From the NCBI GenBank assembly GCA_934090935.1, contig CAKOKD010000003.1, positions 92,604 through 156,603 on the forward strand: 64,000 nt of DNA. Direction: 5' to 3'. The stretch is from an uncultured Bacilli bacterium (GTDB lineage Bacteria; Bacillota_I; Bacilli_A; RF39; UBA660). Shown in pieces: positions 7,477 to 57,321 of this stretch. Within the stretch, counting starts at the first letter, position 1. Each line of letters opens with the position of its first letter. Position numbers and translations under genes: made by a program. The notes under the pieces are model-generated. The model was not told where the DNA came from. It was given only the letters and a program-made list of their open reading frames with translations, and searched no databases.

Positions 7477-7503
7477 ATTATACCTACTTTCCTTTACTTT
7501 TTT

Positions 7504-7530
7504 ATTTTATAATACCCCCCCGATTTTCAA
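7504..7530 (-). promoter_or_regulatory. phase-variable-type promoter: -35 TTGAAA (7525..7530), G7 tract (7515..7521), -10 TAAAAT (7504..7509); spacer 15
   Basis: The coding strand reads cTTGAAAatcGGGGGGGtattaTAAAATaaaaa. The same element recurs with G8 or G9 at five other loci. Confidence 0.6.
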
Positions 7531-7681
7531 GTCATTTTGGAGGGTTTACACTACTTCTTGTAAATATCCTACTGTATAACTTTATTATACTACATATTTG
7601 TTGTATTTTACTTATTTTATTTTTTTATGTGTAAAGTCAAAAAAAGCACTTAAGTTTTAATCCTTAAATGCTTATTTATTT

Positions 7682-18997: not shown

Positions 18998-19025
18998 ATT
19001 TTATAATACCCCCCCCGATTGTCAA
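18998..19025 (-). promoter_or_regulatory. phase-variable-type promoter: -35 TTGACA (19020..19025), G8 tract (19009..19016), -10 TAAAAT (18998..19003); spacer 16
   Basis: The coding strand reads TTGACAatcGGGGGGGGtattaTAAAAT, then the leader with AAGGAAAG RBS and ATG at 18970. Confidence 0.6.
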
Positions 19026-24785: not shown

Positions 24786-26153
24786 TTATTTTATTAATGT
24801 TATACGTGCATATCCATTTCCTTGTTTAGAACAGTTTTCGGTTGGTGTTTCGCTTGTGCATGTAGTTGATATGGTTTTTGTTGACTCTTCACTAGATTCA
24901 GTACAGTTGTAACAATACATCGATTTTTCGGATAAAAGTGAATTTCCTATGTATCCTGAACCTCCGCCAGCGGTATATCCAGCAACAGTTCCACCATAGA
25001 AACCTCCACCGCCTCCAGCCCAGGCCAAAGTGCCTCCACCGCCTTGACCAAATGTTCCAAAATTAGGATTATTTTTATTTGAAGACTCATTCACTGAATT
25101 ATATATTCTTTTGCCTCCATTTGTTTGGGTTCCTCCAAATCCTTGATAGGGTTTGCCTGAAGATGCTGCTATATAAGATCCCGAGTTTCCTCCAATATAA
25201 CCACCACCGGATCCAGAAACTATTTTATAATTATGGTCGTTATTACCACCACCGGCTCCTCCTCCAGAAACAATTAATACATCATCAATGTTATTATTAA
25301 AAGCATATAGTAAACCAGATTCTAATGCTATGTGTGTCGCACCACCTCCACTTGCATTATATGAATTAGTAGCCGAATTAAATGATGCAGATCCTCCTCC
25401 ATTATAGCCGCCTTCTTTGTTTACCCAAGTTAATTCTCCAAGGCCTTGTCCTCCAATATTAATATAAAACTTATTATTCTTTTCTAAATAAATTATTCCT
25501 TGAGAATACCCTCCATATCCACCAGAAATATTTACAGTTTTTCCACCTTCTGCTCCCCAAGTTTCAAGCTTATATGTTCCATTTACTGGAACTTCAAATG
25601 TTTGTTCATCTCCAGTATAATCAAATGTCCATTCTGTTGGTCCATCGTAACTAACACCTAATTCTGTTCTTTCTACGGCATTAAATTCTAATGAACATGT
25701 ATATTCTTCAGTTGTTTCTTCTATTGATTGTTTATCTAAGGTAACAGTTAATGTTCCATTTAATGTTTCGTTTGCTTTTACAACTGTTGCATTTCCTTCT
25801 AATTCATTTTTGATACTTGTATATTTTGCTGTTGTTCCGTCCTTTGGTACACATATAACACGCACTTCTGCATCATAGTTTGCTGAATTGTTTGTTACTT
25901 CATATGTTAGTACTGATGTATCATTTAGTTTTTTTAGGTCTTTACTTTTAAATGTTATTGTCTTCTTTGTATCATCTGTTACTTCATCATATACATCTAT
26001 TCCATCTAATGTTGCTGCTGTAAATATTACTGAATAATCATCTGTATTTTCATTTACTTTTGCATTTCCATTTATTATCAATGTTGTACTTACTGCTGCA
26101 AATCCAATTGACATCAATATTATTGCTACTACTAACATGCTCTTCTTTTTCAT
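24786..26153 (-). CDS. variable secreted protein paralog: conserved N-module + ALK/LTK-like glycine-rich (poly-Gly) domain + Cys-containing C-terminal tail
   Basis: N-module MKKKSMLVVAIILMSIGFAAVSTT... Then PTEWTFDYTGDEQTFEVPVNGTYKLETWGAEGG...GGYGGYSQG...GGGATHIALESGLL...LIVSGGGAGGG... Tail YCYNCTESSEESTKTISTTCTSETPTENCSKQGNGYARITLIK. Confidence 0.8.
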   Translation of the reverse strand: MKKKSMLVVAIILMSIGFAAVSTTLIINGNAKVNENTDDYSVIFTAATLDGIDVYDEVTDDTKKTITFKSKDLKKLNDTSVLTYEVTNNSANYDAEVRVICVPKDGTTAKYTSIKNELEGNATVVKANETLNGTLTVTLDKQSIEETTEEYTCSLEFNAVERTELGVSYDGPTEWTFDYTGDEQTFEVPVNGTYKLETWGAEGGKTVNISGGYGGYSQGIIYLEKNNKFYINIGGQGLGELTWVNKEGGYNGGGSASFNSATNSYNASGGGATHIALESGLLYAFNNNIDDVLIVSGGGAGGGNNDHNYKIVSGSGGGYIGGNSGSYIAASSGKPYQGFGGTQTNGGKRIYNSVNESSNKNNPNFGTFGQGGGGTLAWAGGGGGFYGGTVAGYTAGGGSGYIGNSLLSEKSMYCYNCTESSEESTKTISTTCTSETPTENCSKQGNGYARITLIK

Positions 26154-26180
26154 ATTCTACCTACTTTCCTTTACTTTTTT

Positions 26181-26208
26181 ATTTTATAATACCCCCCCCG
26201 ATTTTCAA
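26181..26208 (-). promoter_or_regulatory. phase-variable-type promoter: -35 TTGAAA (26203..26208), G8 (26192..26199), -10 TAAAAT (26181..26186); spacer 16
   Basis: Same element as the other copies. Followed upstream by an about 130-bp block shared with 31835..31960. Confidence 0.6.
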
Positions 26209-26340
26209 GGGCATTATCTTGTTTTACATTACTTTTGTCGTCTTTTTTATTTTGTTCTCCTATTGTTTCTTATATTATACAACATTTTTATTGTGCTTTG
26301 TATATTCATTTTTATTATGTGTAAAATATTTGTTTTAAAT

Positions 26341-29600: not shown

Positions 29601-31772
29601 TTATTTTATTAAAGTTATACGTGCGTATCCATTTCCTTGTTTTGAACAATTTGCTGTTGGCGTTGCACTTGTGCATGTAGTTGAAATTGTTTTTGTGGAC
29701 TCTTCAGTAGATGTAGCACAGTTATAACAATACATCACTTTTTCGGATAATTTTGAATTACCGATGTATCCTGAACCACCGGCTGCTGAAGAACCATTAT
29801 AATAAGCTCCGCCTCCACCATAAAGTCCACTTCCGCCTCCAGATGCGCTTTGAGTTTTCTCGTAATTTCCTCCATAACCGAATCCTCCATTAGAAATCGT
29901 TAAAGCTGTACTTCCATTAGTTCCATATTTGCTTTGTGAACCTCCAGTTGCTAAACTATCTTTCTCTGTTATTCCATTAGATCCTAAATAACCTCCACCA
30001 GATCCTCCTGAATGTGGATTGTATGGAGATTGGGGAGTTGTTAGATACTTTTTATAGTGCCAACCGGCTCCTCCGCCTCCACCAGAAACAATAAGAACAT
30101 TTTCAATATTATTGCTATAATTTTTTAACTGACCATCATCTATCAATAAGTTCTGAATGGAAGTTGCTCCGCCTCCAGCTCCCCAGACTGTTCCTCCATC
30201 TGATTTTGCGTTTCCTCCTCCATTATAGCCACCATCATATATTTTAACTGTAGAATAATCATCTCCATCAGTTCCTTTTCCTCCAACTATAATATATAAA
30301 ATATCATTTTTATTTAAAGTAACTACTCCTTTTGAATATCCACCATATCCACCAAGAGCCTCGCTTGTTTGAGCATAACCACCTTGTGCTCCCCATGTCT
30401 CTAACTTATATGTTCCAGATACTGAGGCAGTAAATGTTTGCTCGCCTCCTGTATAATCAAATGTCCATTCAGTTGGACTTTTATATGCTTTTTCTGTTCT
30501 AGATATTTTATTAACCTTTAACTTACAAGTAAAATTCTCCATATTGATATTCTCTAGTGTTATAGTCTTCCTATCTTGAGCTTCAATAGTTATTGGATCT
30601 GTTGATATTTTACTATCTTTATCATTTAAAACTAAAGTAATACGTGCATATCCGTTTCCTTGTTTTGAACAGTTTTCGGTTGGTGTTTCATTTGTACATG
30701 TTGTTGATATGGTTTTTGTTGACTCCTCACTAGATTCAGTACAGTTATAGCAATACATCACTTTTTCGGATAATTTTGAATTTCCAATGTAACTTGAACC
30801 ACCTCCAGCTCCTTGTAAAGTACCTGATGTACCGCCATATAAACCGCCTCCGCCACTAATTGTACCAGTATTTATATTTGTTCTTCCTGTACCAAATGAA
30901 CCATTATACTTGCCGCTTGTGTCAAGTGAATTATAGCTTTCTGTTTGAGTTCCACCTACTCCACAAACATAGCCTTTTTTACCATTATATGCATCATGAC
31001 AATCATAAGCGGAAACACCGATATAACCACCAGCATGTCCACCTTTTCCGTTCCAACCACCATGGTTAGAACAACCGCCTCCGCCTCCAGAGACAATAAT
31101 TAAATTTTCAAGACTATTTTTAAACGTAGTTAATAATCCAGAAGATGTTGCTATATGTGTTGCACCTCCGCCTGATGACACTCTTCCAGAGGTATCCGCG
31201 CTTCTTTTGGAATGACCTCCTCCATTATATCCTCCATTGACTAAATTTTTATCACTTGTTCCATTGTTAGCTTTGCCTGAACCGCCAACATTTATATATA
31301 AAACGTCATCCTTATTAAGTGTTGTTGTACCAGACGAATATCCACCGTAACCTCCAAAGTATGTTGAATCGATTACTCCACCTTGTGCTCCCCATGTCTC
31401 TAACTTATATGTAGCAGACATTGGTGCTGTAAATGTTTGTTCAGCACCTGTATAATCAAATGTCCATTCAGTTTTATCTGGTACTATATTATTTTCACAT
31501 TCAATATAACTTTCTGTGTCATATTCTGTTGAATCATTTACTATATCTATACTTATATTTCCATCTATATTGCTTAAAGTAAATTCATCTTTTGTTGCAT
31601 TTATTCCTGTATTTTCTGTATCATTTACTTTTAAATTATCTAAATATACCTTAAAATCACTTATGTTTTCTGATATTTTACCTAATCCATATATATTTAC
31701 TGTTGCATTATATGCTGCATACCCTATTATCATAAATAAAACAGTAACTAGCATTATTGTCGTCTTTTTCAT
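29601..31772 (-). CDS. large secreted protein with two ALK/LTK-like glycine-rich domains, each followed by the Cys-containing tail
   Basis: Signal MKKTTIMLVTVLFMIIGYAAYNATVNIYG. Two copies of TEWTFDYTGxEQTFTAxxSxTYKLETWGAQGG...GGYGGYS...GGGAT...SGGGGG...YCYNCxxSxEESTKTISTTCT..PT.NCSKQGNGYARITL. Confidence 0.75.
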   Translation of the reverse strand: MKKTTIMLVTVLFMIIGYAAYNATVNIYGLGKISENISDFKVYLDNLKVNDTENTGINATKDEFTLSNIDGNISIDIVNDSTEYDTESYIECENNIVPDKTEWTFDYTGAEQTFTAPMSATYKLETWGAQGGVIDSTYFGGYGGYSSGTTTLNKDDVLYINVGGSGKANNGTSDKNLVNGGYNGGGHSKRSADTSGRVSSGGGATHIATSSGLLTTFKNSLENLIIVSGGGGGCSNHGGWNGKGGHAGGYIGVSAYDCHDAYNGKKGYVCGVGGTQTESYNSLDTSGKYNGSFGTGRTNINTGTISGGGGLYGGTSGTLQGAGGGSSYIGNSKLSEKVMYCYNCTESSEESTKTISTTCTNETPTENCSKQGNGYARITLVLNDKDSKISTDPITIEAQDRKTITLENINMENFTCKLKVNKISRTEKAYKSPTEWTFDYTGGEQTFTASVSGTYKLETWGAQGGYAQTSEALGGYGGYSKGVVTLNKNDILYIIVGGKGTDGDDYSTVKIYDGGYNGGGNAKSDGGTVWGAGGGATSIQNLLIDDGQLKNYSNNIENVLIVSGGGGGAGWHYKKYLTTPQSPYNPHSGGSGGGYLGSNGITEKDSLATGGSQSKYGTNGSTALTISNGGFGYGGNYEKTQSASGGGSGLYGGGGAYYNGSSAAGGSGYIGNSKLSEKVMYCYNCATSTEESTKTISTTCTSATPTANCSKQGNGYARITLIK

Positions 31773-31799
31773 TTCTACACCTTCGCATCTTACTTTTTT

Positions 31800-31827
31800 A
31801 TTTTATAATACCCCCCCCGATTTTCAA
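31800..31827 (-). promoter_or_regulatory. phase-variable-type promoter: -35 TTGAAA (31822..31827), G8 (31811..31818), -10 TAAAAT (31800..31805); spacer 16
   Basis: Identical architecture to the 26181..26208 copy. Confidence 0.6.
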
Positions 31828-31998
31828 GGGCATTGTCTTGTTTTACATAACTTTTGTCGTCTGTTTTATTTTGCAGTTGTATTATATCTTATATTATACA
31901 ACATTTTCGTTGTATTTTGCATATTCATTTTTATTATGCGTAAAGTGTATTTATTTATTATCATTGTAATTTATATTGAAAAATGTTATATTTATTTT

Positions 31999-32344: not shown

Positions 32345-32369
32345 TAAAAAAAATCGCATTCTTGCGATT
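32345..32369 (-). terminator. rho-independent terminator of 32368..34497 (stop codon lies inside the hairpin)
   Basis: Minus-strand AATCGCAAGAATGCGATT plus TTTTTTTT. Confidence 0.5.
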
Positions 32370-34497
32370 ATTTTATTAAGGTAATACGTGCGTATCCGTT
32401 TCCTTGTTTTGAACAGTTTGCTGTTGGAGTTTCATTTGTACATGTAGTTGATATAGTTTTTGTTGCCTCTTCACTAGACTCGGTACATTTATAACAATAC
32501 ATTGATTTTTCACTTAATTGTGAATTTCCTATATATCCTGAGCCTCCACCAGCTCCAGCATAATGTGAAAAACCGCCTCCATAAAAGCCAGCACCTCCTC
32601 CGGCTCCAGAAGTTCCTGTATCATATCCACCAATTCCAAAGACTCCATAATTAGTTGTTCTTATACCATGATCTGTACTAGAGTTATATCCATTTCCATA
32701 AACTACAGTTCCACCACTTGTTTGACTTCCTCCAAAGCCTATCCAATAGTAATCACCACTGTTGGTTCCATCGTTACCTTTGTATCCACCACCGGCTCCT
32801 CCAGATCCACTATAAGATGAAGAGTCATTTGTTCGATATCCAAAAGCTGCTCCTCCGCCTCCGGAAACCATTAAGATGGAATCAAGATCGTTTTGTAGAT
32901 TTTCTAGTCTTTCACTTTTTAGTAAAATATAACTAGCATCTCCTCCATCACTACTTCCTTTATAAACTTCATTTCCTTGACCTCCACCAAAGACTTTGTT
33001 TTGTCCACCAACAGTTATATATAAATTATCTTTTTTGTTTAGATAAATTTCTCCAATAGAATATCCTCCATATCCTCCGATATAGGAAACTCCCGCCTTT
33101 GAAGTTGCATTACCTCCTTGTGCTCCCCATGTCTCTAACTTATATGTTCCACTTGTTGGTGCTGTAAATGTTTGCTCTAATCCAGTATAATCAAATGTCC
33201 ATTCAGTTGAGCCTGTATATATTTCTTCTTTTGTCGTTCTTGATATCTTGTTAACTTTTAATTTACAAGTGAAATTCTCCATATTAATATTCTCTAATGT
33301 TATTGACTTCTTATCTTGTGCTTCTATTGTTACCACTTCTGTTGAAGTAATTTCTTTTGAATTACTTGAAACTAGAGTAATACGAGCGTATCCATTGCCT
33401 TGCTTTGCACAATTTTCAGTTGCTGTTGATGAAGTACATGTAGTTGAAATGGTTTTTGTTGACTCTTCATCTGACTCAGCACAGTTATAGCAATACATTG
33501 ATTTTTCACTTAATTGTGAATTACCAATATATCCTGAGCCACCTCCAGCGCCTCCATGGAAACTACCTCCGCCTCCATAAAAGCCAGCACCTCCGCCACA
33601 AGCAACATAATTTGCCACAGTTGATCCAAATCCTTTACCAAATGTACCAATACATGCTCGATATCCGCTTGATGTTCCTTTTATCCAGACCATATCTCCT
33701 CCAGTTGTTTGACTACCACCTGTTCCATAACCATATCCATATCCGTTAGTATGGTTAACTGACTCTCCGTTGTTTCCTTTTATTCCTCCGGCAGATCCTC
33801 CGTTTCCATCTCCATAACCTGAGCCTCTGTTTGCTGCTCCGCCTCCACCTCCAGAAACAATCAATATGTTTTCTTTTTTAGTTTCAAAAGTGGATAATAA
33901 TCCCGATAAATCTGCTATATGTGTTGCTCCGCCGCCAGCTTTTCCGTAATTGCCATTATTAACGTACCCACCGCCATTATATCCTCCGGTAAGAGCAACT
34001 CCTTGACCACCTGCATTTATATATAGAATTTTTCCACCTTCTAAGGTCATTTTACCAGAAGAATATCCGCCATAGCCTTCAAAATAATTTGATGAATAAG
34101 ACCCACCTTGTGCTCCCCATGTTTCAAGCTTGTATGTTCCACTTATTGGTGCTGTAAATGTTTGCTCCGATCCTGTGTAATCAAATGTCCATTCAGTTTT
34201 CTCCGGTGTTACATTGCTTTCACACTCAAGATAACTTTCTGTGTCATATTCTGTTGAATCATTTACTATATCTATACTTATGTTTCCATTTATATTGCTT
34301 AAAGTAAATTCGTCTTTTGCATCATTTATTCCTGTACTTTCCGTATCATTTACTTTTAAATTATCTAAATATACTTTAAAGTCACTTATGTTTTCTTCTA
34401 GTTTACCCAATCCATATATATTCACTGTTGCATTATAAGCAGAAAAACCTATCACCATAAACAATATTGTTAAAAGCAAAATGATTCCTTTCTTCAT
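32368..34497 (-). CDS. large secreted protein with two ALK/LTK-like glycine-rich domains (tandem paralog of 29601..31772)
   Basis: MKKGIILLLTILFMVIGFSAYNATVNIYG... Same two-domain organisation and the same C-terminal tail. No poly-G promoter upstream. Confidence 0.75.
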   Translation of the reverse strand: MKKGIILLLTILFMVIGFSAYNATVNIYGLGKLEENISDFKVYLDNLKVNDTESTGINDAKDEFTLSNINGNISIDIVNDSTEYDTESYLECESNVTPEKTEWTFDYTGSEQTFTAPISGTYKLETWGAQGGSYSSNYFEGYGGYSSGKMTLEGGKILYINAGGQGVALTGGYNGGGYVNNGNYGKAGGGATHIADLSGLLSTFETKKENILIVSGGGGGAANRGSGYGDGNGGSAGGIKGNNGESVNHTNGYGYGYGTGGSQTTGGDMVWIKGTSSGYRACIGTFGKGFGSTVANYVACGGGAGFYGGGGSFHGGAGGGSGYIGNSQLSEKSMYCYNCAESDEESTKTISTTCTSSTATENCAKQGNGYARITLVSSNSKEITSTEVVTIEAQDKKSITLENINMENFTCKLKVNKISRTTKEEIYTGSTEWTFDYTGLEQTFTAPTSGTYKLETWGAQGGNATSKAGVSYIGGYGGYSIGEIYLNKKDNLYITVGGQNKVFGGGQGNEVYKGSSDGGDASYILLKSERLENLQNDLDSILMVSGGGGAAFGYRTNDSSSYSGSGGAGGGYKGNDGTNSGDYYWIGFGGSQTSGGTVVYGNGYNSSTDHGIRTTNYGVFGIGGYDTGTSGAGGGAGFYGGGFSHYAGAGGGSGYIGNSQLSEKSMYCYKCTESSEEATKTISTTCTNETPTANCSKQGNGYARITLIK

Positions 34498-36641: not shown

Positions 36642-37217
36642 TCATAGTTTTTCCTTTATTTCCTTTAATAAATCAGCAAATAATTTTTCTCTGTTGAAAG
36701 ATGTATCAATATACTTTATGTTATATTTCTTACATTGATCAATTATTTTATTTTCAAATTCTTTGGCCTTTTTTATATGATTTAATAGGTTTTCATCAGT
36801 TCTTCTTTTCGTCCATGCAGATTCATCATCATAAAGTCTACAGTTTTCTAAGATTTCTTCAATCGTTAATTTTGAATTTACAAAAAAGTAAACTAAAGTA
36901 TTTGAAGTGTCAAAATAGTTGATTATATCTTCTGGCATTATTGAATCTGAATTGATTATATAACCTAATTCATTTCCTAATCTATTTTTATTTTTTTCAA
37001 GCAATGTATTTATAAATTTGGATAATTTGTTATCCTTTAAATCATCGTGAGCAAAACCGATTTGAATTCCTTCAAAAGTACTTTGTAAAGCTGAGATGAT
37101 GGAATCAACTTCAATTATTTCAAAGTTATTTAATTCTCTATATAACAGTTTAGAAAATGTTGTTTTTCCTGTTCTGCAAGTTCCTAATATCATTATATTT
37201 TTCATGCTATTCACCAC
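36642..37217 (-). CDS. P-loop NTPase / kinase-like protein
   Basis: Walker A ILGTCRTGKTT. 191 aa. Confidence 0.45.
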   Translation of the reverse strand: MVNSMKNIMILGTCRTGKTTFSKLLYRELNNFEIIEVDSIISALQSTFEGIQIGFAHDDLKDNKLSKFINTLLEKNKNRLGNELGYIINSDSIMPEDIINYFDTSNTLVYFFVNSKLTIEEILENCRLYDDESAWTKRRTDENLLNHIKKAKEFENKIIDQCKKYNIKYIDTSFNREKLFADLLKEIKEKL

Positions 37218-37245
37218 TCTTTGGATTATAAAATATATTTATGAG

Positions 37246-37965
37246 TTATTTTTGAATTAAATTTTTATTATAATGGTTAAGTAAATAATCATATAATCTT
37301 GGGCATATATTTTCTAAATCAAGTGTTGAATTCTTTATTGTGTAATCAAAGATAGCATTTAATTTATACGAATTGTCTAAATAACATAGTTTTATTTTAT
37401 CACTGCTGATGATATGATTAGATAAGCAATGCATATTCCACTTATCCATATAATTATTATCAAGTGAAGAATATTTTTTAGAGTAACCCATTAATTCTAA
37501 ATGTCTTTTTTTATAGTTTTTTGATTTTATTTCATCTATATCATTATATTGAAAATCGATATTTTCTTTTAAATCCAATTTAAGTAAAACCGACTCATTT
37601 ATTATTTTATCAAAGACTTTGTATGCTCTTTTTCGATGAACTTTTGTTTCCTTTAATACTCCAAAATATACATCTGCAATAATTTGTGGAAACCATTTTT
37701 GTTTTAAAAGACGCGCGCCTAAAGCGTAAATAAAGGTTATTCTTGGAATGTAATAATAACAATTTATCCAACAATCAAATAGAATCAATAAATTGTCTAA
37801 TCCTTCAACAAAGAAAACTTTTTCCGATTTTTCTATAAATCTAGCATTCTTTCCGATTTTTGGGATGAGACCATTTTGTTTAATCGATTGTAAATTTTTG
37901 CTTGAAGTAAAATGAAAATAATTATGTTTTATATCATCAATTGTTATCTTATATTCTTCTGGCAT
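37246..37965 (-). CDS. hypothetical protein with N-terminal HxT...GLIP motif (ART-fold, DarT/Tpt1-like?)
   Basis: HNYFHFTSSKNLQSIKQNGLIPK resembles the YHFTHxxNLxSILxxGLL (DarT) and YHGTxxxxLxxIxxxGL (Tpt1/KptA) motifs. 239 aa. Weak. Confidence 0.35.
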   Translation of the reverse strand: MPEEYKITIDDIKHNYFHFTSSKNLQSIKQNGLIPKIGKNARFIEKSEKVFFVEGLDNLLILFDCWINCYYYIPRITFIYALGARLLKQKWFPQIIADVYFGVLKETKVHRKRAYKVFDKIINESVLLKLDLKENIDFQYNDIDEIKSKNYKKRHLELMGYSKKYSSLDNNYMDKWNMHCLSNHIISSDKIKLCYLDNSYKLNAIFDYTIKNSTLDLENICPRLYDYLLNHYNKNLIQK

Positions 37966-38232
37966 TATGAACTTCCCTCACTAATAAATTTATTATTTCT
38001 AAAAGAATTTTACCATAAAATCAAACTTATTAAAACTTAAAACGAAGTTGAATTTCATATCTTTAACTTTTTACAACATATATCTAGTATAATGAAATTT
38101 ATAAAAATTAAAAAAATGATATAAAGCATTAAAGCCCGATATCATCATCTTATGTTAATCAAATTTTTTGAATTATTAAAATACCAATAATATTTTATGA
38201 TTTTAACTACTTAATTATCAATTTCTTAAAAA

Positions 38233-38547
38233 TCACATATGTTTTCTTGATGAAACCATTTTATCAGGAATATAATCTTGAACAAATGAAAGTGCTTGAT
38301 CAGCTGAATTAACAACAGCAGATGAAGTATGTCCAAGCCTATCTTGATATTGAACAGTGACGTGATCAGTGGCACTTAAACCAGATTGCTTTGATATAAA
38401 ATCAAATGTTAAACTACAATCTTCTGAGTAAACGATAACTCTTTTACACCCTGGAGCTAAATCTTGTTCTCTACAACTGGATAATCCATTTGTAAGTCCT
38501 TCATATATTTCATTTAAATTTGTGTTAGTTTCAACACTCATATTCAT
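38233..38547 (-). CDS. small soluble hypothetical protein (104 aa), compositionally foreign (about 40% GC), driven by a poly-G promoter copy
   Basis: MNMSVETNTNLNEIYEGLTNGLSSCREQDLAPGCKRVIVYSEDC... No signal peptide. GAGAGG RBS. Confidence 0.45.
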   Translation of the reverse strand: MNMSVETNTNLNEIYEGLTNGLSSCREQDLAPGCKRVIVYSEDCSLTFDFISKQSGLSATDHVTVQYQDRLGHTSSAVVNSADQALSFVQDYIPDKMVSSRKHM

Positions 38548-38573
38548 AATATATTTACCTCTCTTTCTCCCTT

Positions 38574-38601
38574 ATTTTATAATACCCCCCCCGATTTTCA
38601 A
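38574..38601 (-). promoter_or_regulatory. phase-variable-type promoter copy: -35 TTGAAA (38596..38601), G8 (38585..38592), -10 TAAAAT (38574..38579)
   Basis: Same element. Here it is upstream of a non-paralog cargo gene. Confidence 0.55.
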
Positions 38602-38747
38602 GTCATTTTGGATGATTTACATTTTGTTGTCAATCCATGATTGTAAATTTAAAGGAGATAACTAAAAGAAATAAATAAACTATAAAAGATACTTTCTAGA
38701 ATAAATAATAATTATTTATATTTAATTGAATATATTCCTATCATTTT

Positions 38748-39338
38748 TTAGATGGTATGGCCATAATCTTTGATCATACTTCTTTTCAAATTTATTGCGT
38801 CTGCTGTTTGCTTATTTTTTATTTGATTGTTTAAGTCACTTTGTTCCAGATTATATAACCTTTCTTTAGCGCTAAATAAAGTATAGGCATCACGAATACT
38901 TAATTCTGTGTAGCAGCCATCTTTGGATGCTATATATCTTTTTAAATCATCTACTGTTCTAAGCTCATCTAAAATTAAAGAAACTTCATTCTTTACTTCT
39001 TCTGAAATCATGCTGTTTACTAAACTTTTTAAGGAAGTACTACGCATAAAAATGACCACTCTATCATGTTCCTCTTGAGTACATTCTCTATTTTTATATT
39101 TAATTAATAATTTAGATAATTCCATTCTTTCTCTTATTTTTAAATATTCTTGTATCTTATCAGTTTGCATTAAACTAAGTGGAGTTTGATTAAGTTCATT
39201 TATATAGTTAATTTCTTCCTCAGAAAAAATGCTAGTAAATTTTATCCATATTTCTAAGGCATTGCTAATATTTGGGTATGAATCACATATAACAGGATAT
39301 GATAAAGTTACACTTTTAGGTATTATAATTTTACTCAT
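38748..39338 (-). CDS. hypothetical protein
   Basis: 196-aa ORF, no motif. Confidence 0.4.
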   Translation of the reverse strand: MSKIIIPKSVTLSYPVICDSYPNISNALEIWIKFTSIFSEEEINYINELNQTPLSLMQTDKIQEYLKIRERMELSKLLIKYKNRECTQEEHDRVVIFMRSTSLKSLVNSMISEEVKNEVSLILDELRTVDDLKRYIASKDGCYTELSIRDAYTLFSAKERLYNLEQSDLNNQIKNKQTADAINLKRSMIKDYGHTI

Positions 39339-39783
39339 TGGTAAACCTCCTATATTTTATTTTTTTCTCGATAATTAATTGTTGATTATTCTATGTATGC
39401 GATGACTTGGATAAATAATCTCTTAACATTTTCAAAAACCACTTCATAATTTATGAGGTAAAAAATCAATAAATTATCACTTTCATCTACAAAGATTATA
39501 TCAATTTTTTAAATAAAAAAAAGTCTTAGAAAAATAATTCAAGACTTTTTTAAGAAAGCTGTCTTATAATAAATCAATTAGCTTTGTATCATGCATTTAT
39601 GGTGCCTGTGAAGAAGAAGTCGAATAACTTTTCCTACAAACAATTAATAGGTAGCAATAACTTACTAACTAATATAAGTATATCACAATATTTAGCATTT
39701 TTAACAAAAAAATTGATAACATAGTATTTCAAATAATAGAATTTATAAAAAAGATGATATAATTAAAAAGGAAGTGATTAATT

Positions 39784-40704
39784 ATGCAAGAAATTATTAA
39801 TAAAATAATACAACAAAATCAAAATTTATTTAGAGAAAATTCAACAGTAAGTAAAATTAATGTTGGATTTACCAATACTTTATATAGTGTTAATGATTCT
39901 TTTATTATCAAAATATGTACTGATTTAAATAATGAACCTAAATTCAATAAAGAAATAGAATTTTATAATGCAAATAACAATAATGATTTAATACCAAAGT
40001 TATATTATGCTAACACTGATAAAGCTGATATTCCATTTTTCTATGAAATATTAGAAAAAATTAATGGAGTTTCATTATATGATGTTTGGCATACTTTTAA
40101 CGAAGAACAACGAGAAGACATTATTAAACAATTATGTGAAGCAATGAAACAATTTCATAGTAATAAAGGGCAAAGTTATGATTGGGTAAAAAGAACTAGC
40201 TATTTATTTATAAATTCGTATAACAAAGCAAAAGAATTGAATTTACTTACTAGCGAGGAACAAGAATTGTTAGAAAGTGCTTATTCAAAATTTGATGGAT
40301 ACTTACAATCTGATGAATTTGTTTTAATCCATAATGATTTGCACTTTGATAATGTATTTTATGATAATGGAAAAATAAAATTAATTGATTTTGAAAGATC
40401 AATATATGCACCAAGAGATTTTGAATTAGATATTCTTTATAGAATGATCAGAAAACCTTGGAAGTTTGCAAGTGAAGAAAATGAGCGATATACAAAACTA
40501 GAAGATTATGAAAATATAATGTCTTATATTGAAAAATATTATCCAGAATTAATACATATTGATAATTTATATCAAAGACTTGCAATATATGATATTGTTT
40601 ATTTCTTGAAACAATATGTTAATGCACCACAATATGATGAATTAAAACAAGATGTATTAAATGCAGCCAAGATTGTTGTAGGAAATCAAAAAGTAAAATT
40701 ATAG
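39784..40704 (+). CDS. aminoglycoside/choline-kinase (APH) family phosphotransferase
   Basis: Brenner motif HNDLHFDNVFYDNGKIKLIDFE (catalytic HxDxxxxN ... D). 306 aa. Confidence 0.65.
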   Translation: MQEIINKIIQQNQNLFRENSTVSKINVGFTNTLYSVNDSFIIKICTDLNNEPKFNKEIEFYNANNNNDLIPKLYYANTDKADIPFFYEILEKINGVSLYDVWHTFNEEQREDIIKQLCEAMKQFHSNKGQSYDWVKRTSYLFINSYNKAKELNLLTSEEQELLESAYSKFDGYLQSDEFVLIHNDLHFDNVFYDNGKIKLIDFERSIYAPRDFELDILYRMIRKPWKFASEENERYTKLEDYENIMSYIEKYYPELIHIDNLYQRLAIYDIVYFLKQYVNAPQYDELKQDVLNAAKIVVGNQKVKL

Positions 40705-40717
40705 GAAGTGATGATTA

Positions 40718-41245
40718 ATGGATAGTTTTGTATGTAAAATTGCTACTCGAGATGAAATTATAAAAAGAATGAACTATTTAATAGAAACTCATCCTAACAA
40801 TAATGTATGGATAGAGGCAAAAGAAAATGCTCTTAAAGGATTTGATGAACAAAGTAAAATAATGTATATAGGCGTTCTTAATGATGAAATAATTTGTGAA
40901 GCAACCACTTATATAAAAGAATCCGCATTCATAGGAGATGTAAAAGAACCAGAAGGCTTATTAAGTAAAACTATGGCATATTTTAGTGGTTTTAGAACAA
41001 ATAAAGAGTACGAAGGTAAAGGTTATTTTGGTAAATTGTATAACTTTATGGAAGATGATTTAAAAAAAAGAGGATATACTGAATTTTGTTTAGGGGTTAA
41101 ACCTCGTAATGTTAGAAATATGGAAATATACTTTCATTTAGGATTTAGAGAATTTATTAAATCAATTATTGAATATGAACCAGTAAAAAATAACAAATCT
41201 AAAACAGAATTAGTGGTTATAAACTATTTTAAAAAGAAGATATAG
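40718..41245 (+). CDS. GNAT-family N-acetyltransferase (putative)
   Basis: 175 aa. EYEGKGYFGKL (motif A, Q/RxxGxG/A-like). Immediately downstream of the APH-family gene. Confidence 0.5.
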   Translation: MDSFVCKIATRDEIIKRMNYLIETHPNNNVWIEAKENALKGFDEQSKIMYIGVLNDEIICEATTYIKESAFIGDVKEPEGLLSKTMAYFSGFRTNKEYEGKGYFGKLYNFMEDDLKKRGYTEFCLGVKPRNVRNMEIYFHLGFREFIKSIIEYEPVKNNKSKTELVVINYFKKKI

Positions 41246-41529
41246 CAAAATAAAAATCGTGGCACGTTATGAACTTACAAAGTAATTTTGTAAGTGGCGA
41301 TAGATTTTTATAATTTATTTTCATTACGAAGTTTTGAAAATAAACAATTGCAATTTATTACAATTCAAAAAAACATAATTTGCTTGAACGAATTGTTCTT
41401 GCTTAATTATGTTTTAGGGTTTCAAAAGGGAATATTCCCTTTGCACACACCTATTGGCTCTGCCAATAGAGAAGTGTGTTTTATCTATTGGAAATAAATA
41501 TTACTGACAAGCGAATGCTTGTCTTTTTA

Positions 41530-42357
<828 letters not shown>

Positions 42358-42557
42358 TCAAAAATACTAGTAGTTCAAACTAATACTCTTGACTCCTCAA
42401 TAATACTAATATAATAAGTTTTTAAATGTTTTCGTTTACTTTTAACCATAGAAGTACCTCGCTTTCTAATAAAAGACTAGATACTGCTTGCTTTTATTGG
42501 TTTACTATATTATACTTTTATCTTTGATTTGTCAATTCCTTATTTAGGGAATGAATA

Positions 42558-42875
42558 TTAGTTTGATTTAATATATTCTAATAAATCTTTAAACTTAATC
42601 TTTTTATCATGGCCATTAATATAAATATCATCACATTCATCAAACATTAAATAATCAATTTTATTAATAGTTATTATGTGGGGTTTTACATAAGCAATAT
42701 TTGTTCCTTTAATATTTCTAATATTACCATTTTTGTATGTCGGTTTAGCATAAGCAAACTTACATATCATATCGACTTTCTTTCTTAATTCCTCACTTAT
42801 ATTTAATTCTTTAGTTTCTATTGTTAACATATAATCACTCTCACTTTCTTTCTTAAATAACAAAAAAACTAACAT
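42558..42875 (-). CDS. hypothetical protein
   Basis: 105-aa ORF between the recombinase remnant and the tRNA. Confidence 0.3.
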   Translation of the reverse strand: MLVFLLFKKESESDYMLTIETKELNISEELRKKVDMICKFAYAKPTYKNGNIRNIKGTNIAYVKPHIITINKIDYLMFDECDDIYINGHDKKIKFKDLLEYIKSN

Positions 42876-42931
42876 TTCTGTTAGTAATTTATTACTCTCG
42901 AAACTTTAAAAGTTCGAGTTTCCTATCAATA

Positions 42932-43006
42932 TGGTGTCCTAGATGAGAATCGAACTCATATCTAAGCTTTAGGAGAGCCTTGTACTATCCATTGTACTAC
43001 CAGGAC
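42932..43006 (-). tRNA. tRNA-Arg (anticodon CCU), CCA-encoded
   Basis: Reverse complement GTCCTGG-TA-GTAC..GTAC-A-AGGCT-CTCCTAA-AGCTT-AGAT-ATGAG-TTCGATT-CTCAT-CTAGGAC-A-CCA. Cloverleaf with 7-bp acceptor stem (one G-U), TPsiC GTTCGATTC. Anticodon loop CU-CCU-AA. Confidence 0.8.
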
Positions 43007-45784: not shown

Positions 45785-46224
45785 AAACTTTTCCTCCTTT
45801 TAATTAACAAAATAACTATAAATAATATAACAATGGTAACTATGGGTATAAATATATAACAATATGTATGATTATTTTCTTTATTATATATTACTACTTC
45901 TTGAAAAGATTCATCTCCATAGCTTAAATATGTTTCTTTTAACTTGCCTTTATAGGTTATCTTTCCTATCTCAAACCTTCCTTCTTTAAACGAATCTGTA
46001 TAGAGAAGGATTGAATTAGAATCATAATCTCCTTGAAAATCATTTGATGGTTCAAAATTTATAACGTCTCCTTTTATATGATATTCAATTGCTGATACTA
46101 AGAAGTTTGAATTAGCATACATCGTACATGTGTGTTCACTTTTTTTATCCTCGCATTCATAGTCAATATTCTCTGCAAGAACAAGCGTTGGAAGAAGTGA
46201 TAACATAACAATTATCATTTTCAT
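45781..46224 (-). CDS. small membrane-anchored protein with a mini cohesin-like module
   Basis: Signal peptide. LLYTDSFKEGRFEIGKITYKGK parallels LYTDTMKTGTFSIGTITLK of the neighbour. C-terminal TM plus RRKSL. Confidence 0.4.
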   Translation of the reverse strand: MKMIIVMLSLLPTLVLAENIDYECEDKKSEHTCTMYANSNFLVSAIEYHIKGDVINFEPSNDFQGDYDSNSILLYTDSFKEGRFEIGKITYKGKLKETYLSYGDESFQEVVIYNKENNHTYCYIFIPIVTIVILFIVILLIKRRKSL

Positions 46225-49200
46225 TATATACCACTTATCCTATTCCTTACAAAACTATATAGTTTTGATACATCAGCAACTTTTATTTCATTTTGTTTTC
46301 TTATATGAGCCGATGCTAAACTGTATTTATCAAGTTCAGTTTTGCCTCTTACATAATTGTATAACATGGATACATCAAAGACATTGATTTTGCCATCCTT
46401 GTTTAAGTCTCCAATTATTACAATTGCATATGTTTCTTCACCGTTTTGTAAATACATACCTGTACCGATTTCATTTACTTTTGATGTGATATCTGAATGA
46501 TTTTTATCAAGAATCTTATAGTCAGTTACAACTCCATTTAAATTCGATAAGAACTCAGATTTAGTTAAACTTTTTTTATTCATGCTTAAGACATTTATTA
46601 TTGTTTCATCATAATTTATGCTATAAACATTTGATGTTAATCTTTGTCTAGCAGTTATTTTTATTTTTTTAACAACGTCATTATGAGTGAATACAAGTTC
46701 ACATGAACCTATACCATTTACTTTAATTCTTCCATCATCAAGCACTTTAACAATCGCTTCATCAGTTGAAGTAACAGTTACTGAATTATCAGTATGATTA
46801 CTTGGATTTAAAACGTAATTATAAGGTTTGAATTCCCCATAAAATAAAGTTAAATTATCATCAACTTCAACATTATCGATAATCACCTTTAATTCATCAA
46901 CTTTGATATATTTTTTTACAGGTGAACTTATACGCGTATATGGTAAACCATTTATACATAGATAGAAATCAAGATTTCCTTCTTTTAAAGCATTAGTTTT
47001 AAAATCTATTTTTTTGAATGTATTTCCATATAAATCTTCAGAAGTATATGATACTTTTATTTCATCAACTAAAGTAAGTGAATCGAATACTTTAATCGAA
47101 TAAACATCAGTATCCACATCATCATAAGTAGTCATAAAATAATATGTTCCCTTTGCTCCATCGATATCATATATCGAGTTATCTCCATAGTTTTTAACCG
47201 GTTCAACTTTAGAATATCCGCTTAAACTAACATTATAGTAGTTTTTCTCGATTATGAATGAAAGCATATTAGAAGCGGAATAAGATCCATCACTTTCATA
47301 GTAATATAGTTGTACACGATACTCCCCAACTCTTGCTTTAAATGGAATGATATTGATATAGTATTTTCCTTCATCCGCAATTTTATTTTCTAGATTAAAG
47401 GCATTGGTAACATTATCCTCTTTGATATCACTATAAAGAATATTATCTTCAGCGTCATAGATTCTTGCTTTGATGTTATTTAAATCATTTCCTGTTAAGA
47501 CAGTACTTACATCAAATGTATATCCCATATTTTCTTGGTCTGCATAAACAATAGAATTTAATGAAATCATATTTGATAGAATTATGCTCTTATATGAAGA
47601 ATTCATTTCATAATCAACATTTTTTGTAATGCTCTTCAGTGGATTTTCTTGATAAGTTAAACTTATGACATAATTATCAGCTTGGATAGAAGAATTCTTA
47701 TCATATTTTATTCTAATTTGATTGTCATATTTCTCAACTGTGAATTTATCAGTAACATCAACATTTTTAGATGAAGTTATCTTAACTAACATGTCAGATG
47801 CAAATAGCTCATAATCACTTTTTATAAATATTGTGAAAACACTGTCGACATTATTATGAAGTCTTCCATCCATTGCATCAGTCATAATCTCTGTTTTTTC
47901 TATTTCAAAATCTTTTACATAATTACCTATGTCAAATGTTTGAGTTTTTTCTACTCTATATCCATCCATGTCATAGTATGTTACTAATCGATAAGTTCCT
48001 GGTTCTACCGAGTTTTTAGCATATTCAACATTTAAAATAAATGATGTTAAAGAAGTACTTGAATTAGTTGAATAGATTTTAAAGTTCGAAGTAACATCAT
48101 TATCCTCAGCATCAAATATTTTAGAGTTTTTACTGAATACATGCTTGTTAGAATCTCTGTCGATATGAGATGAACTTATTTGAATATCAGGAATGTCTAC
48201 TGTGCTTATATCATACTCTATTTTTCCACCATTTTCTGCATTTGGATAAAGTGGATTTGGATCAGTTTTATATGAATCAAAATAGAAATTGAAATAAGTT
48301 TTATTTACTGTAAACGTTAAGGAATCTTTTATCGTTTTTTTGCTATTTGAATAGCTAACTTCAACCATATATTTTCCTGATTCAATTTGTTTTAGAGTTG
48401 GATCGTAATTTATCTCTAGATTATGACTTGCTACAAATTCACTTCTGTTGAAATTGAAATATGAAGTGTAGTCTCTTAAACCATCCTCAGATAAAACTTT
48501 AATTTGAATATCTTCATTACTATAATCTATTCCATATATACGAACAGGTATATATATTTTACCAACCTTGTTTGTAAACAATCCATCAGATACTTGATTA
48601 TTCGATATTTTAGAGTATATAAGTGTATTATCTTTATCAAAAATGATATCTGCATATTCATCTTGAACATCAAAAGTATATGTTTTATAATCCGAACTAT
48701 TATAATATAAAGTTAATGCATATTTTCCTTCTTCTAATTTTAAATTCGAATCCAGATTATCTTTAAGAGTTAACTTCAATTTTTGATTATCTTTAGTTGT
48801 ATTTAAATCGTTAAAACGATTATTATAGTTTGTTCCACTTGTTGGATCACATACACCATTTATGCAGTCTTTATTGATAACCCAAGATGCATTTTTTTCA
48901 TATGGAGATGAAAGAGTTACATCGATTGTTACATCATTTAAATTATTGTAGAATCCTGGTACATCAATGTAATTTCCATTATCATTATATTTGGATGTGA
49001 TAACTACGTCGCTTATCTTCCACTCGAATAGAGACTTCAATGTCTTTCCGTAATCGGTTAATTCATATTCAACATTTCTTGTAGCATAGGAAGCAAGAAG
49101 TGTATAAGTTCCTTTCATATCAACCGTATTTTGAATAAGCTCAATAATCAATTTTCCTTTGAAATCAGGACCTGTACTTAAATCCCAGTTATCTCTTATC

Positions 49201-52200
49201 TTAAACATACGTGTGCTTGCATCTACACTTGAAACATCAACGTATTTCTTTTCATTTGTATCATAATAATAGATAAAGTACTCAATCTTATCTAGCTCAT
49301 TTTCAGCGATATTTTTTGTTGAAATGTCATAATATATGAACATTCCATCATCATTTACCTTTGGAGTTCTATTAGTTAACTCTATAAGATATTCTTCTTT
49401 AGTTACATTAAAAGTCAAATTAGAAGTTATAAGTTCATTATCACCCTCTTGATATGATAAACCTAAGACATATTCACCTACTTCAGCGGCATTTTTTACA
49501 TTTGTTAACAAGAATTGATAATAAGTTAATTCACTATCTTGTTGATGATAGACATAATCGTATCTAAATATAGTTTCTCCAGCTATGTTTTTGAATGCTT
49601 TATTTTGTTTATCTAAAATAAAGTTTTCATCAGTACTTCCAGGGATTTTTCTTGTGATACTTGGAACTATATTCTCCGGTGAAGATACAAAATGAAGATT
49701 CGCGTTTATTGATGCGTTTTTTTCAACATTTCTAGCGAAAGCAAGAGGTGTTTCATCAGTTAGTTCAATGTCATAATATTTTCCAGAGATAGTAAATTCT
49801 TTTTCACATTGTCCAGTTACACCATTATTTTTATATTCAACGACTAATTTATAATCACCAGCATTTACTCTTCCTGGTATAGTTTGTAAGTTAACTGTTC
49901 CTGATGATTCTATTGAGTCAACAGGATTAACAAATTTTGATTTTATAACAAATTTTGATGTCGCATCAACATAAGATCCTTCAACTTTTTCTAATACTTT
50001 AATATCAAATCTACTCTTTTGATTTTCATCATCCACTGAATAGATATATTTAGTTTTAATCGTAAAATCAAGATTTCCATCAACATTATAATAAACAACA
50101 TGTTTATCATTTCTCTCATTTGTTGCATCTACGTCGCTTACTTCAAGATTATATATAGGATCATTATAAGAAATGGATGTCATATGAACATTTTGAAGCC
50201 ACATCTCAGGATATAAATCTTTGCTGATTGTTGCTTCAATCGTTTCTCCAGTTATTGGATCTACACTATTTTGGTTGATATAACCTATAGCATCCATTGT
50301 TTCATATTTTGTATATACATAATATGTTCCTTTATCAACTTCAGTTTTAGGTAAAATAGTAACTGCTTTTTCAACGTTTGTTAAATCGTCGTAGTCAACT
50401 GTAATATTAAATTTGTTAGTGACTTCATTACCTTTAATTGCATCCCCATTTATGCTATATACTTTATATTCACCCATGAATGTTCCACGGATGATATTTC
50501 CTGATGCATCAAAGATAAATTTTGTTATTAAGTAGTTATAGATATCTGGATATTGTACTTTGAATGTAGTCAAAGGCATTGATTTGTTTTTTGTCTGTAA
50601 AACGTTTGATTCGTTATAGAAGTCAAAAACCACATCAACATCTGTTCCCTCAGCATTTGATTTAAATGATTTTATAACCATTTTATAATTCTTACCTGAT
50701 GGATCAGTATGATAGAAGTTGTCATCATCAGTTATAATATTGTTGTTTTGATCATACTTATAGCATTCTAAAAAGTTGTTATTTCCGCAAGTTGGAAATC
50801 TTTCATCTATTTGATATCTGCTTGCAAACTCCGCATAAGTAAGCTCATTTGTTAAAGTTTGACCTCCATTTATAGTTACATCAAAATTTACTTTTGTTGT
50901 TGCTTTATTATAACTATTTATTTTTATTTGATAAGAATCAACATCATAATATTTTAAAATGTTTTGTCCTTTTGAATCTTTCTTCAAAGCCCCAGTTTCA
51001 TCAGTTTCATATTCAACATGATGGTCAAATATTCTAGTCGAAATAGATCCTGCAGTTCTTGTATCAACTTTCTTTCCACCTTTGATCAAATATAATCCTA
51101 AATAGTATTCATATCTTTGGTTTGATGGAGGTAAAATTGAAGATGGAAGTTCATCTTCTTTTTCGGCATGTGTATCAAACATACTAGTTAAGTAGTAATC
51201 TGTGTTTTGATCATAAATTTCAAATTTAATCGATTGCTCCTCTGCATCCTCAAAAGGTAAAACTATTTTATAGACTCCCGTATATTTCTCTTTTGTATTA
51301 TCATAATCGACACTGCAAGTTATTTGACCAGTAGAATCATCAACTGGGCTATATTTACAAGTAAGAGTAAAACCATCTGCTGATGCACAAATTCCATTTT
51401 GACAAGTATCAGGGTTTTCCGCTTTAACTATATATGGACTAAAATTATCAAATTCTTCACTTCTCACTCCGTCATAAGATATCGTTTTTGTAATAATACC
51501 ACCGGATAAAGCAAATACATTTTGATTTTTAGGATCAATTGTTTTATTTTCTTCAGGAACTGCATAAATCAAATTATAGATCAAATATCCATTTGCATCA
51601 TATTCATAATTATTAACTAAGAATTGATAAGCATCTTGGTATTTTGCTTTAAAGTCAGCCACCATTAAAGTGTTGGAAGTTCCTCCTAGAGTATAAGTTA
51701 TGTTTGTACCATTATAGTTTGTGATGATTAAATCATCCGAATATTTATAAGTTATGTGTCCTTCTTCATCGCTTGTTAAAACATCAATATTAGCTGTTTC
51801 ATAAGTTTTTTTAAAATCAGCAATTGTAGTAGTTTTACCTGTTCCAGATATAATATAAGTTATATTTTGACTAGTTAGAGATGTTATCTTCATAGAATAT
51901 TTTTTATCAACAATTTGTCTTATATATCTATGAGATTCAGCATCAACATCCGTAAGCCTTATATAACGTTTACCAATCTTAAATGTAGTTTTTTGACTAT
52001 AAGTAGTTTCTTTAAAGTCAGATGATGTATGAGTTATTGTCACTTCATAAGTACCTGATTTGGGTATATTGAAAAATGATCTTTTATTAGTTATATATAT
52101 TTTATTCTTTTCTTGTGTTACATCAAATTTAGATGTAGTTACATCCTTATCGTTATATTTAATGGAGATTGATATTCCGCTTATATCACCCGAGCCTACT

Positions 52201-57294: not shown

Positions 57295-57321
57295 AGTATA
57301 TCATCCCCCCCCGATTTTCAA
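57295..57321 (-). promoter_or_regulatory. phase-variable-type promoter: -35 TTGAAA (57316..57321), G9 tract (57304..57312), -10 TATACT (57295..57300) preceded by TG; spacer 15
   Basis: The coding strand reads TTGAAAatcGGGGGGGGGatgTATACTaaaa. Longest G tract, and a different -10 from the other copies. Confidence 0.55.

Follow-up and report, generated by a model that had tools for sequence, protein, structure and literature searches.

We analysed a 64,000-nucleotide (nt) stretch of DNA from an uncultured Bacilli bacterium (contig CAKOKD010000003.1; this whole stretch is the window below), in which a minus-strand gene for a protein of 104 amino acids (aa), at 38233..38547, lies behind one copy of a repeated promoter cassette with a run of eight G residues (G8). 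The cassette core, at 38574..38601 on the minus strand, reads TTGAAAATCGGGGGGGGTATTATAAAAT, that is TTGAAA-ATC-G8-TATTA-TAAAAT, and agrees with the consensus of the cassette family at 28 of 28 bases. A promoter consensus scan placed the -35 hexamer TTGAAA at 38596..38601 and the -10 hexamer TAAAAT at 38574..38579, and the G8 tract (C8 on the plus strand) occupies 38585..38592 within the 16-nt spacer ATC-G8-TATTA. The coding sequence begins 26 nt past the -10 hexamer, after a purine-rich 5' leader (38548..38573) with a GAGAGG ribosome-binding site at 38558..38563; this leader is loosely like those of the family genes, agreeing, as judged by eye, at about 20 of 29 positions. The core is part of a 50-nt homology block (38572..38621, minus strand) that is 94% identical to the copy at 7502..7550 and whose inner 31 nt are identical to 26179..26209 and 31798..31828, and the likeness to the family copies fades inside the 5' leader and does not reach the start codon. 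Directly upstream of the cassette -35 lies a second promoter-like site, TTGACA-17-CAAAAT (38605..38633, minus strand). At the other end, about 90 nt past the stop codon, a terminator-like hairpin (38115..38146) precedes a T-rich run (whole element 38100..38146, minus strand), which suggests that the 104-aa gene is transcribed on its own; the hairpin went unflagged in a consensus terminator scan.

The 28-nt core has two perfect duplicates, at 26181..26208 and 31800..31827, and a copy with a single mismatch at 18998..19025; no such recurrence is expected by chance. The promoter copy that an earlier, sequence-only reading of this DNA had reported is therefore real. Six G7 or G8 cassettes were found on the minus strand of the window, and the five others precede genes for proteins that start with a hydrophobic leader (MKKKSMLIVAI.. 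or MKKTTIML..) and match Pfam DUF6273 or ALK_LTK_GRD. The G8 cassette at 26181..26208 stands downstream of WhiA and before a 455-aa ALK_LTK_GRD protein, and that at 31800..31827 before a 723-aa ALK_LTK_GRD protein, while the G8 copy at 18998..19025, which has TTGACA as its -35, the G7 copy at 7504..7530 and a variant G8 copy at 57295..57321 precede DUF6273 proteins of 392, 395 and 401 aa. In the variant, ATGATATACT directly follows G8 in place of TATTATAAAAT, and the -10 region and spacer are unlike those of all other copies. A further ALK_LTK_GRD paralog, of 709 aa (32368-34497), has no poly-G cassette upstream, unlike the paralogs at 24786-26153 and 29601-31772.

The cassette family extends beyond the window. 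When one genome per species was scanned for the exact pattern, with tracts of G7 to G10 allowed, 37 copies came up in only three genomes: 18 loci each in CAKOPW and CAKOJJ, two 'uncultured Bacilli' metagenome-assembled genomes from the Hadza gut, and one in Firmicutes bacterium CAG:582. The tract was G8 in 36 of these 37 copies (loci L004-L040; such labels denote loci or contigs fetched from related genomes and metagenomes) and G7 in one. Conservation spans about 40 nt upstream of the -35 hexamer through to the purine-rich leader. At least five kinds of gene follow a cassette, and the great majority of the products carry one of two related leader types, the exceptions being L011 and L020, where the product is a membrane-anchored protein of 200 aa, and L035, where it is a secreted protein of 470 aa. 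When the window, the three genomes and L001 are taken together, 42 of the 44 cassettes lead into leader-bearing proteins, and a leaderless product is found only at the 104-aa locus, in the window and in L001. Neither the cassette system nor the organism was found described in the literature searched.

Some further observations concern the family itself. Its proteins in CAKOPW, CAKOJJ and CAG:582 have a nearly identical 45-residue N-terminus, MKKKSMLIVAILLMSIGFAAVSTTLVINGNAKVSENEEDFSVIFT. In L036 (CAKOPW010000011.1, 646-3473), beside PolA, an intact G8 cassette is followed by a family gene coding for 636 aa or more and then by a 255-aa gene that is 95.7% identical to that of the window; the same cassette position thus holds different family genes in different lineages. 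Three Logan contigs (L052, L053 and L054) start exactly at TTGAAAATC, indicating that assemblies built with short k are interrupted at the cassette's identical 31-nt core, and cassette loci may be under-represented or mis-joined in assemblies.

The 104-aa open reading frame (ORF) is a genuine gene and not a family fragment. In a search of 5.8 billion proteins its relatives formed only three clusters, at 95, 71 and 55% identity. HMMER over 1.84 billion representative proteins gave nine matches at E<=0.001, of which four are other small proteins, 92-118 aa long; the very long repeat proteins P0008 and P0009 were rejected as relatives, their scores being inflated by repeats and the hhalign comparison of the profile with P0009 giving a probability of 4%. 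The homolog at 71% identity (L002) has an ordinary promoter, TTGATA-17-TATAAT, without poly-G, and the homolog at 55% (L003), which adjoins the 3' end of a tRNA, likewise has an ordinary promoter without poly-G. The neighbours of the remaining distant homologs (GGDEF, TatD, 2-hydroxyacid dehydrogenase and DUF4186 genes) showed no common theme. With independent homologs in unrelated contexts and no DUF6273 or ALK_LTK_GRD signal, the possibility that the ORF is a degraded family paralog was rejected, and inspection of the region between the 104-aa and 239-aa genes for a family-gene remnant or a second cassette found neither. The sequence-only reading had likewise held that the product is not a family member.

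The protein is acidic, with an isoelectric point of 4.9, and has no hydrophobic leader: the maximum Kyte-Doolittle hydropathy over a 19-residue window is 0.55, against 2.38 for the family N-terminus. Searches of Pfam, NCBIfam, PHROGs and PADLOC matched nothing, in agreement with the earlier statement that the protein carries neither a signal peptide nor a recognisable domain, and a sequence search of the PDB with the family profile gave nothing below E 0.24. An AlphaFold2 model built from four sequences only predicts a helix, five strands and a helix, an alpha-beta5-alpha sandwich, with a predicted local distance difference score of 87.4 and a predicted template-modelling score of 0.80. As modelled, this small acidic protein would share the order of helix, five antiparallel strands and helix with CyaY (4hs5), TriTu (7zhm_D) and PsiB (3nct). 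Membership of the frataxin/CyaY family was rejected, no significant sequence-profile match or strong structural match having been obtained, and the searches returned no fold or family match. With low confidence, we suggest that the protein may be a small module that binds proteins, of the immunity or inhibitor type.

Comparison of strains revealed two arrangements around the gene. Type A, that of the window, was represented by 12 loci with a readable promoter and has the order 196-aa gene, cassette, 104-aa gene, 239-aa gene, AAA_18 kinase-like gene, 656/660-aa gene and ALK_LTK_GRD gene. In the window the 196-aa gene, present in every type-A strain and in none of type B, lies at 38748..39338 and the 239-aa gene at 37246..37965, both on the minus strand. 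Type B, the commoner arrangement in metagenome strains, was represented by nine loci, in which a response regulator, a 178-aa gene, WhiA and a terminator hairpin are followed by a decayed cassette, the small gene, the 239-aa gene, the first ~240 nt of AAA_18, a family gene in pieces of 72 and 101 aa, the 255-aa gene and PolA.

Arrangement and the state of promoter and gene were perfectly correlated. In consensus assemblies, from which all tract lengths were read, the cassette was intact at all 12 type-A loci, with G8 in 11 and G7 in L001, where the following T is lost, and the 104-aa ORF was intact at all 12. At the nine type-B loci the tract was interrupted, at G4-5 followed by A, and the ORF truncated; the decayed cassette reads TAGAAAATTGGGGGATATTAT in most, with TAGAAA replacing TTGAAA. 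The type-B small gene ends at Q54stop, or in L048, a low-coverage contig, by a frameshift instead, and the small gene is therefore dispensable. The 239-aa gene was intact at seven of the eight readable type-B loci. Gene splits were also seen in single strains: AAA_18 is divided into 72 and 119 aa in two type-A strains (L056, 5344-5908; L059, 4758-5322), and the 239-aa gene into 103 and 110 aa in one type-B strain (L064, 4583-5301). These splits indicate repeated gene decay in the accessory stretch.

The junctions between the arrangements show how they are related. The segment common to type-B strains corresponds to 36976..38610 of the window (minus strand), that is the cassette, both the 104-aa and the 239-aa gene and the opening ~240 nt of AAA_18; it is 97.4% identical between A and B, and the flanking core genes are 80-94.5% identical. 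On the left, identity starts at the cassette, and upstream of the -35 hexamer type B has another subtype of cassette-upstream sequence, resembling the copies at 57295..57321 and 18998..19025. On the right, type B tracks the AAA_18 coding sequence to ...CTTGAAAAAAATAAAAATAGAT, beyond which stand the leader and start of a family gene, GAGGTGTGTTAAAG ATG AAG AAA AGG AGT GCA...; the switch point falls in an A-rich stretch common to both sequences, AAAATAAAAATAGA, which resembles the cassette -10 and leader. The position after WhiA, where type B has the transplanted segment, is occupied in the window by the intact cassette at 26181..26208 and the 455-aa family gene. Type A has the whole of AAA_18 and type B just its 5' part, so the donor was A-like. 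The comparison shows a recombination with one end inside the cassette, so that cassette and cargo are exchangeable, and we read it as direct evidence that cassette copies are recombination substrates. Portability of the cassette, as proposed in the sequence-only reading, thus holds in part: the exchange occurs, but the alignments document cargo moving into a resident cassette and not a cassette moving to cargo.

Taken together, the explanation that we favour, with a probability of roughly 0.6, is that a rare gene for a cytoplasmic protein has come to stand behind a poly-G cassette by recombination, and that the cassette acts as a switch. On this view the 104-aa ORF is a genuine accessory gene, and a very rare one, whose product is small, acidic and cytoplasmic with a predicted alpha/beta-sandwich fold; the gene's native 5' region was replaced by a cassette copy of the kind that otherwise precedes secreted or surface proteins. 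Transcription would start from TTGAAA and TAAAAT across the 16-nt spacer, most of which is G8. Gain or loss of a G by slipped-strand mispairing would alter the spacer length and with it promoter strength, and would tie the 104-aa gene to the stochastic switch of the surface family; it is in this sense that we infer phase-variable control of the gene. The fusion would have arisen by recombination with the cassette as the patch of homology. Recombination of this kind is documented once, in the origin of type B, where a donor stretch with its ends in the cassette and near codon 80 of AAA_18 entered the cassette of the family gene beside WhiA. This placed the small gene behind the resident promoter and severed the family gene from it, and all three, family gene, promoter and small gene, have since decayed.

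Several observations weigh against this explanation. Among 55 intact cassettes, drawn from at least four lineages and three species genomes, 52 have exactly G8 and three have G7 (7504..7530 in the window, L005, and L001 at the 104-aa locus), and none is longer. The TTGACA-17-CAAAAT site, found in all type-A strains, could make expression of the 104-aa gene wholly or partly independent of the tract. In public metagenomes, intact alleles occurred on ~110 contigs and truncated alleles of 53 or 41 aa on ~400; truncated alleles being some four times as frequent, selection on the gene in this species is weak. The metagenome scan used an alignment of four sequences, an alignment of eight sequences being too divergent. 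Finally, only the later event from A to B is documented, and not the origin of the type-A fusion itself.

The uniformity of the tract bears most directly on a different account, which we consider possible but clearly less probable: the cassette would be a regulon promoter of fixed strength, G8 would serve as a recognition or structural element, for example for a dedicated regulator, and the 104-aa gene would be co-regulated with the family. The 16-nt spacer obtained at G8 already fits an active sigma-70-type promoter, which is in keeping with this account. Against it, a G8 run is not expected by chance in DNA of 28% GC, and such a run in a genome of this composition is a classical signature of selected mutability. 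The G7 variants exist, and the type-B tract has shrunk through deletions plus a substitution, from which it follows that the tract is mutable. Switching through a promoter homopolymer also has a precedent in Mycoplasma hyorhinis, with its Vlp system, as presented in PMC10502178. As for the constancy of G8, assemblies give the majority state, and if each of ~18 loci were ON in a few percent of cells, every locus would appear at one and the same OFF length. The uniformity could thus reflect a majority state everywhere, such as OFF where each cell expresses few of the ~18 loci; it could also come from homogenisation of the copies by gene conversion, or the tract could be a fixed element.

The frequency of truncated alleles, and the extreme rarity of the protein family, could instead mean that the 104-aa ORF is a functionless passenger in decay, dragged beside a family promoter in a plastic region. 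The ratio of nonsynonymous to synonymous substitution rates (dN/dS), which climbs to 0.4-0.8 among close type-A alleles, points the same way, as does the decay of neighbouring genes noted above. We nevertheless judge this rather improbable. ORF and cassette are intact together at every type-A locus, dN/dS falls at 0.19-0.37 when the gene is compared with the homologs at 71% and 55% identity, and the modelled fold is confident although it was obtained from only four sequences. In type B, moreover, gene and promoter have decayed together, as would be expected had the promoter served the gene.

Less probable again is the interpretation given in the sequence-only reading, that a compositionally foreign gene was recently imported and captured by a mobile cassette moving in front of it. 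Its coding GC had been put at about 40%; the computed value is 32.1% (44% at first, 39% at second and 13.3% at third codon positions), against 28.2% for the window. Among the 53 ORFs of the window (mean 27.8%, standard deviation 3.9) this ranks tenth (z = +1.09), below family genes, and the third-position value lies under the ORF mean of 16.3% (z = -0.88), so that the GC profile, a check fixed beforehand, showed no deviation. The ORF does exceed its immediate neighbours, at 24-27%, while the cassette family genes reach 32-37%; the small excess is confined to codon positions 1 and 2 and so reflects amino-acid content. The gene is not compositionally foreign, and its third-position GC is typical of the genome. 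Nor does the cassette look mobile, having neither terminal repeats nor a transposase, and the sole reconstructible rearrangement moved cargo into a resident cassette. Cassette and protein were both absent from the viral contigs of IMG/VR, and a phage origin is unlikely.

What does favour an import is the setting, since the locus, which the sequence-only reading had placed in an accessory stretch leading to a tRNA-Arg island, lies in a strain-variable stretch beside a tRNA gene, and the distant homolog L003 adjoins one too. The tRNA-Arg(CCT) gene is at 42932..43006 (minus strand), and the stretch from it to the 196-aa gene holds resolvase, GNAT and APH genes in the window and L049, nothing in L050, Mob_Pre, GNAT and APH in L056, and a tyrosine integrase in L001. 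In the window this segment of ~3.3 kb (39700-42900) carries APH (39784-40704), GNAT (40718-41245), a serine resolvase (41848-42324) and a 105-aa ORF, and looks like a small integrative or mobilisable island with genes like those for antibiotic modification. Elsewhere in the window, a minus-strand ORF of 2195 aa (46224-52811) has behind it, as L049 and L050 show, a gene that weakly matches a Cadherin-like Pfam entry.

The 239-aa protein is one of a broad and widespread accessory family, as yet uncharacterised, in which more than 244 relatives share 50-98% identity with it and no Pfam domain is recognised; in the other species examined (L068-L076) members occur partly on mobilisable elements, one of which bears Mob_Pre, AAA_25, HTH, Fic and MFS genes. 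That it forms a toxin-antitoxin or immunity pair with the 104-aa protein, both served by the promoter, is very improbable and was rejected, as neither tight operon coupling nor obligate co-occurrence was found: a gap of 267 nt with the terminator-like hairpin separates the genes, the 239-aa gene has its own upstream -10-like element (TGgTAAAAT), its relatives in the species examined stand without a 104-aa gene, type B keeps it while the small gene is truncated, and PADLOC and Pfam gave no matches.

Should the G8 cassette truly switch by slippage, surface-coat variation of the Vlp kind would exist in uncultured gut Bacilli, where the literature searched did not describe it, and the present locus would show recombination rewiring such switches to genes for non-surface proteins. 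Types A and B then offer a natural experiment, in which an intact cassette and gene can be set against a dated transplant that has decayed and left a family gene orphaned. More tentatively, we propose a poly-G switch system of ~18 loci per genome in human-gut Bacilli related to CAG:582, in which cassettes of 30-50 nt would be both stochastic switches and landing pads for recombination, through which unrelated genes could join the phase-variable regulon and family genes could leave it; were this so, selection would act jointly on the surface coat and on the on/off state of the 104-aa protein as a cytoplasmic factor. For the present the practical gain is modest: a claim about composition has been corrected, a rare protein family with a confident predicted fold defined, and a promoter family flagged.

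Known systems with a homopolymer in the promoter offer a frame for these results. In Neisseria meningitidis, a poly-G tract lies between the -35 and -10 hexamers of porA, and opc has poly-C in its promoter. As there, a G/C homopolymer in the spacer would set the distance between the hexamers and hence promoter strength. The Neisseria tracts differ in being single loci that evolved independently and in varying widely in length between isolates, whereas here one cassette is repeated across ~18 genes and G8 is nearly fixed. A closer parallel is M. hyorhinis, in which the promoter of every vlp surface-lipoprotein gene contains a homopolymeric A tract (Citti & Wise 1995, as reported in PMC10502178). 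Both systems consist of a multigene family of surface proteins in which each gene has a conserved 5' cassette with a promoter homopolymer, and in both the host is a low-GC member of the Bacilli/Mollicutes branch. The tract here is poly-G and that of Vlp poly-A; the proteins here are of the DUF6273 or ALK_LTK_GRD type and not lipoproteins, and switching is something that we infer for the present system. The conserved 5' cassette common to a multigene family is as in the Vlp/porA class, and the homopolymer stands between recognisable -35 and -10 hexamers as in the promoter-spacer homopolymer class; the leaderless 104-aa protein departs from the surface or secreted products of the Vlp/porA class. 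To our knowledge, Vlp has no cassette copy that drives a leaderless cytoplasmic protein. The description that fits the system best is a promoter-spacer homopolymer family of the Vlp type in uncultured gut Bacilli, to which exchange of cargo through the cassettes is added, with one cassette rewired to a rare cytoplasmic protein.
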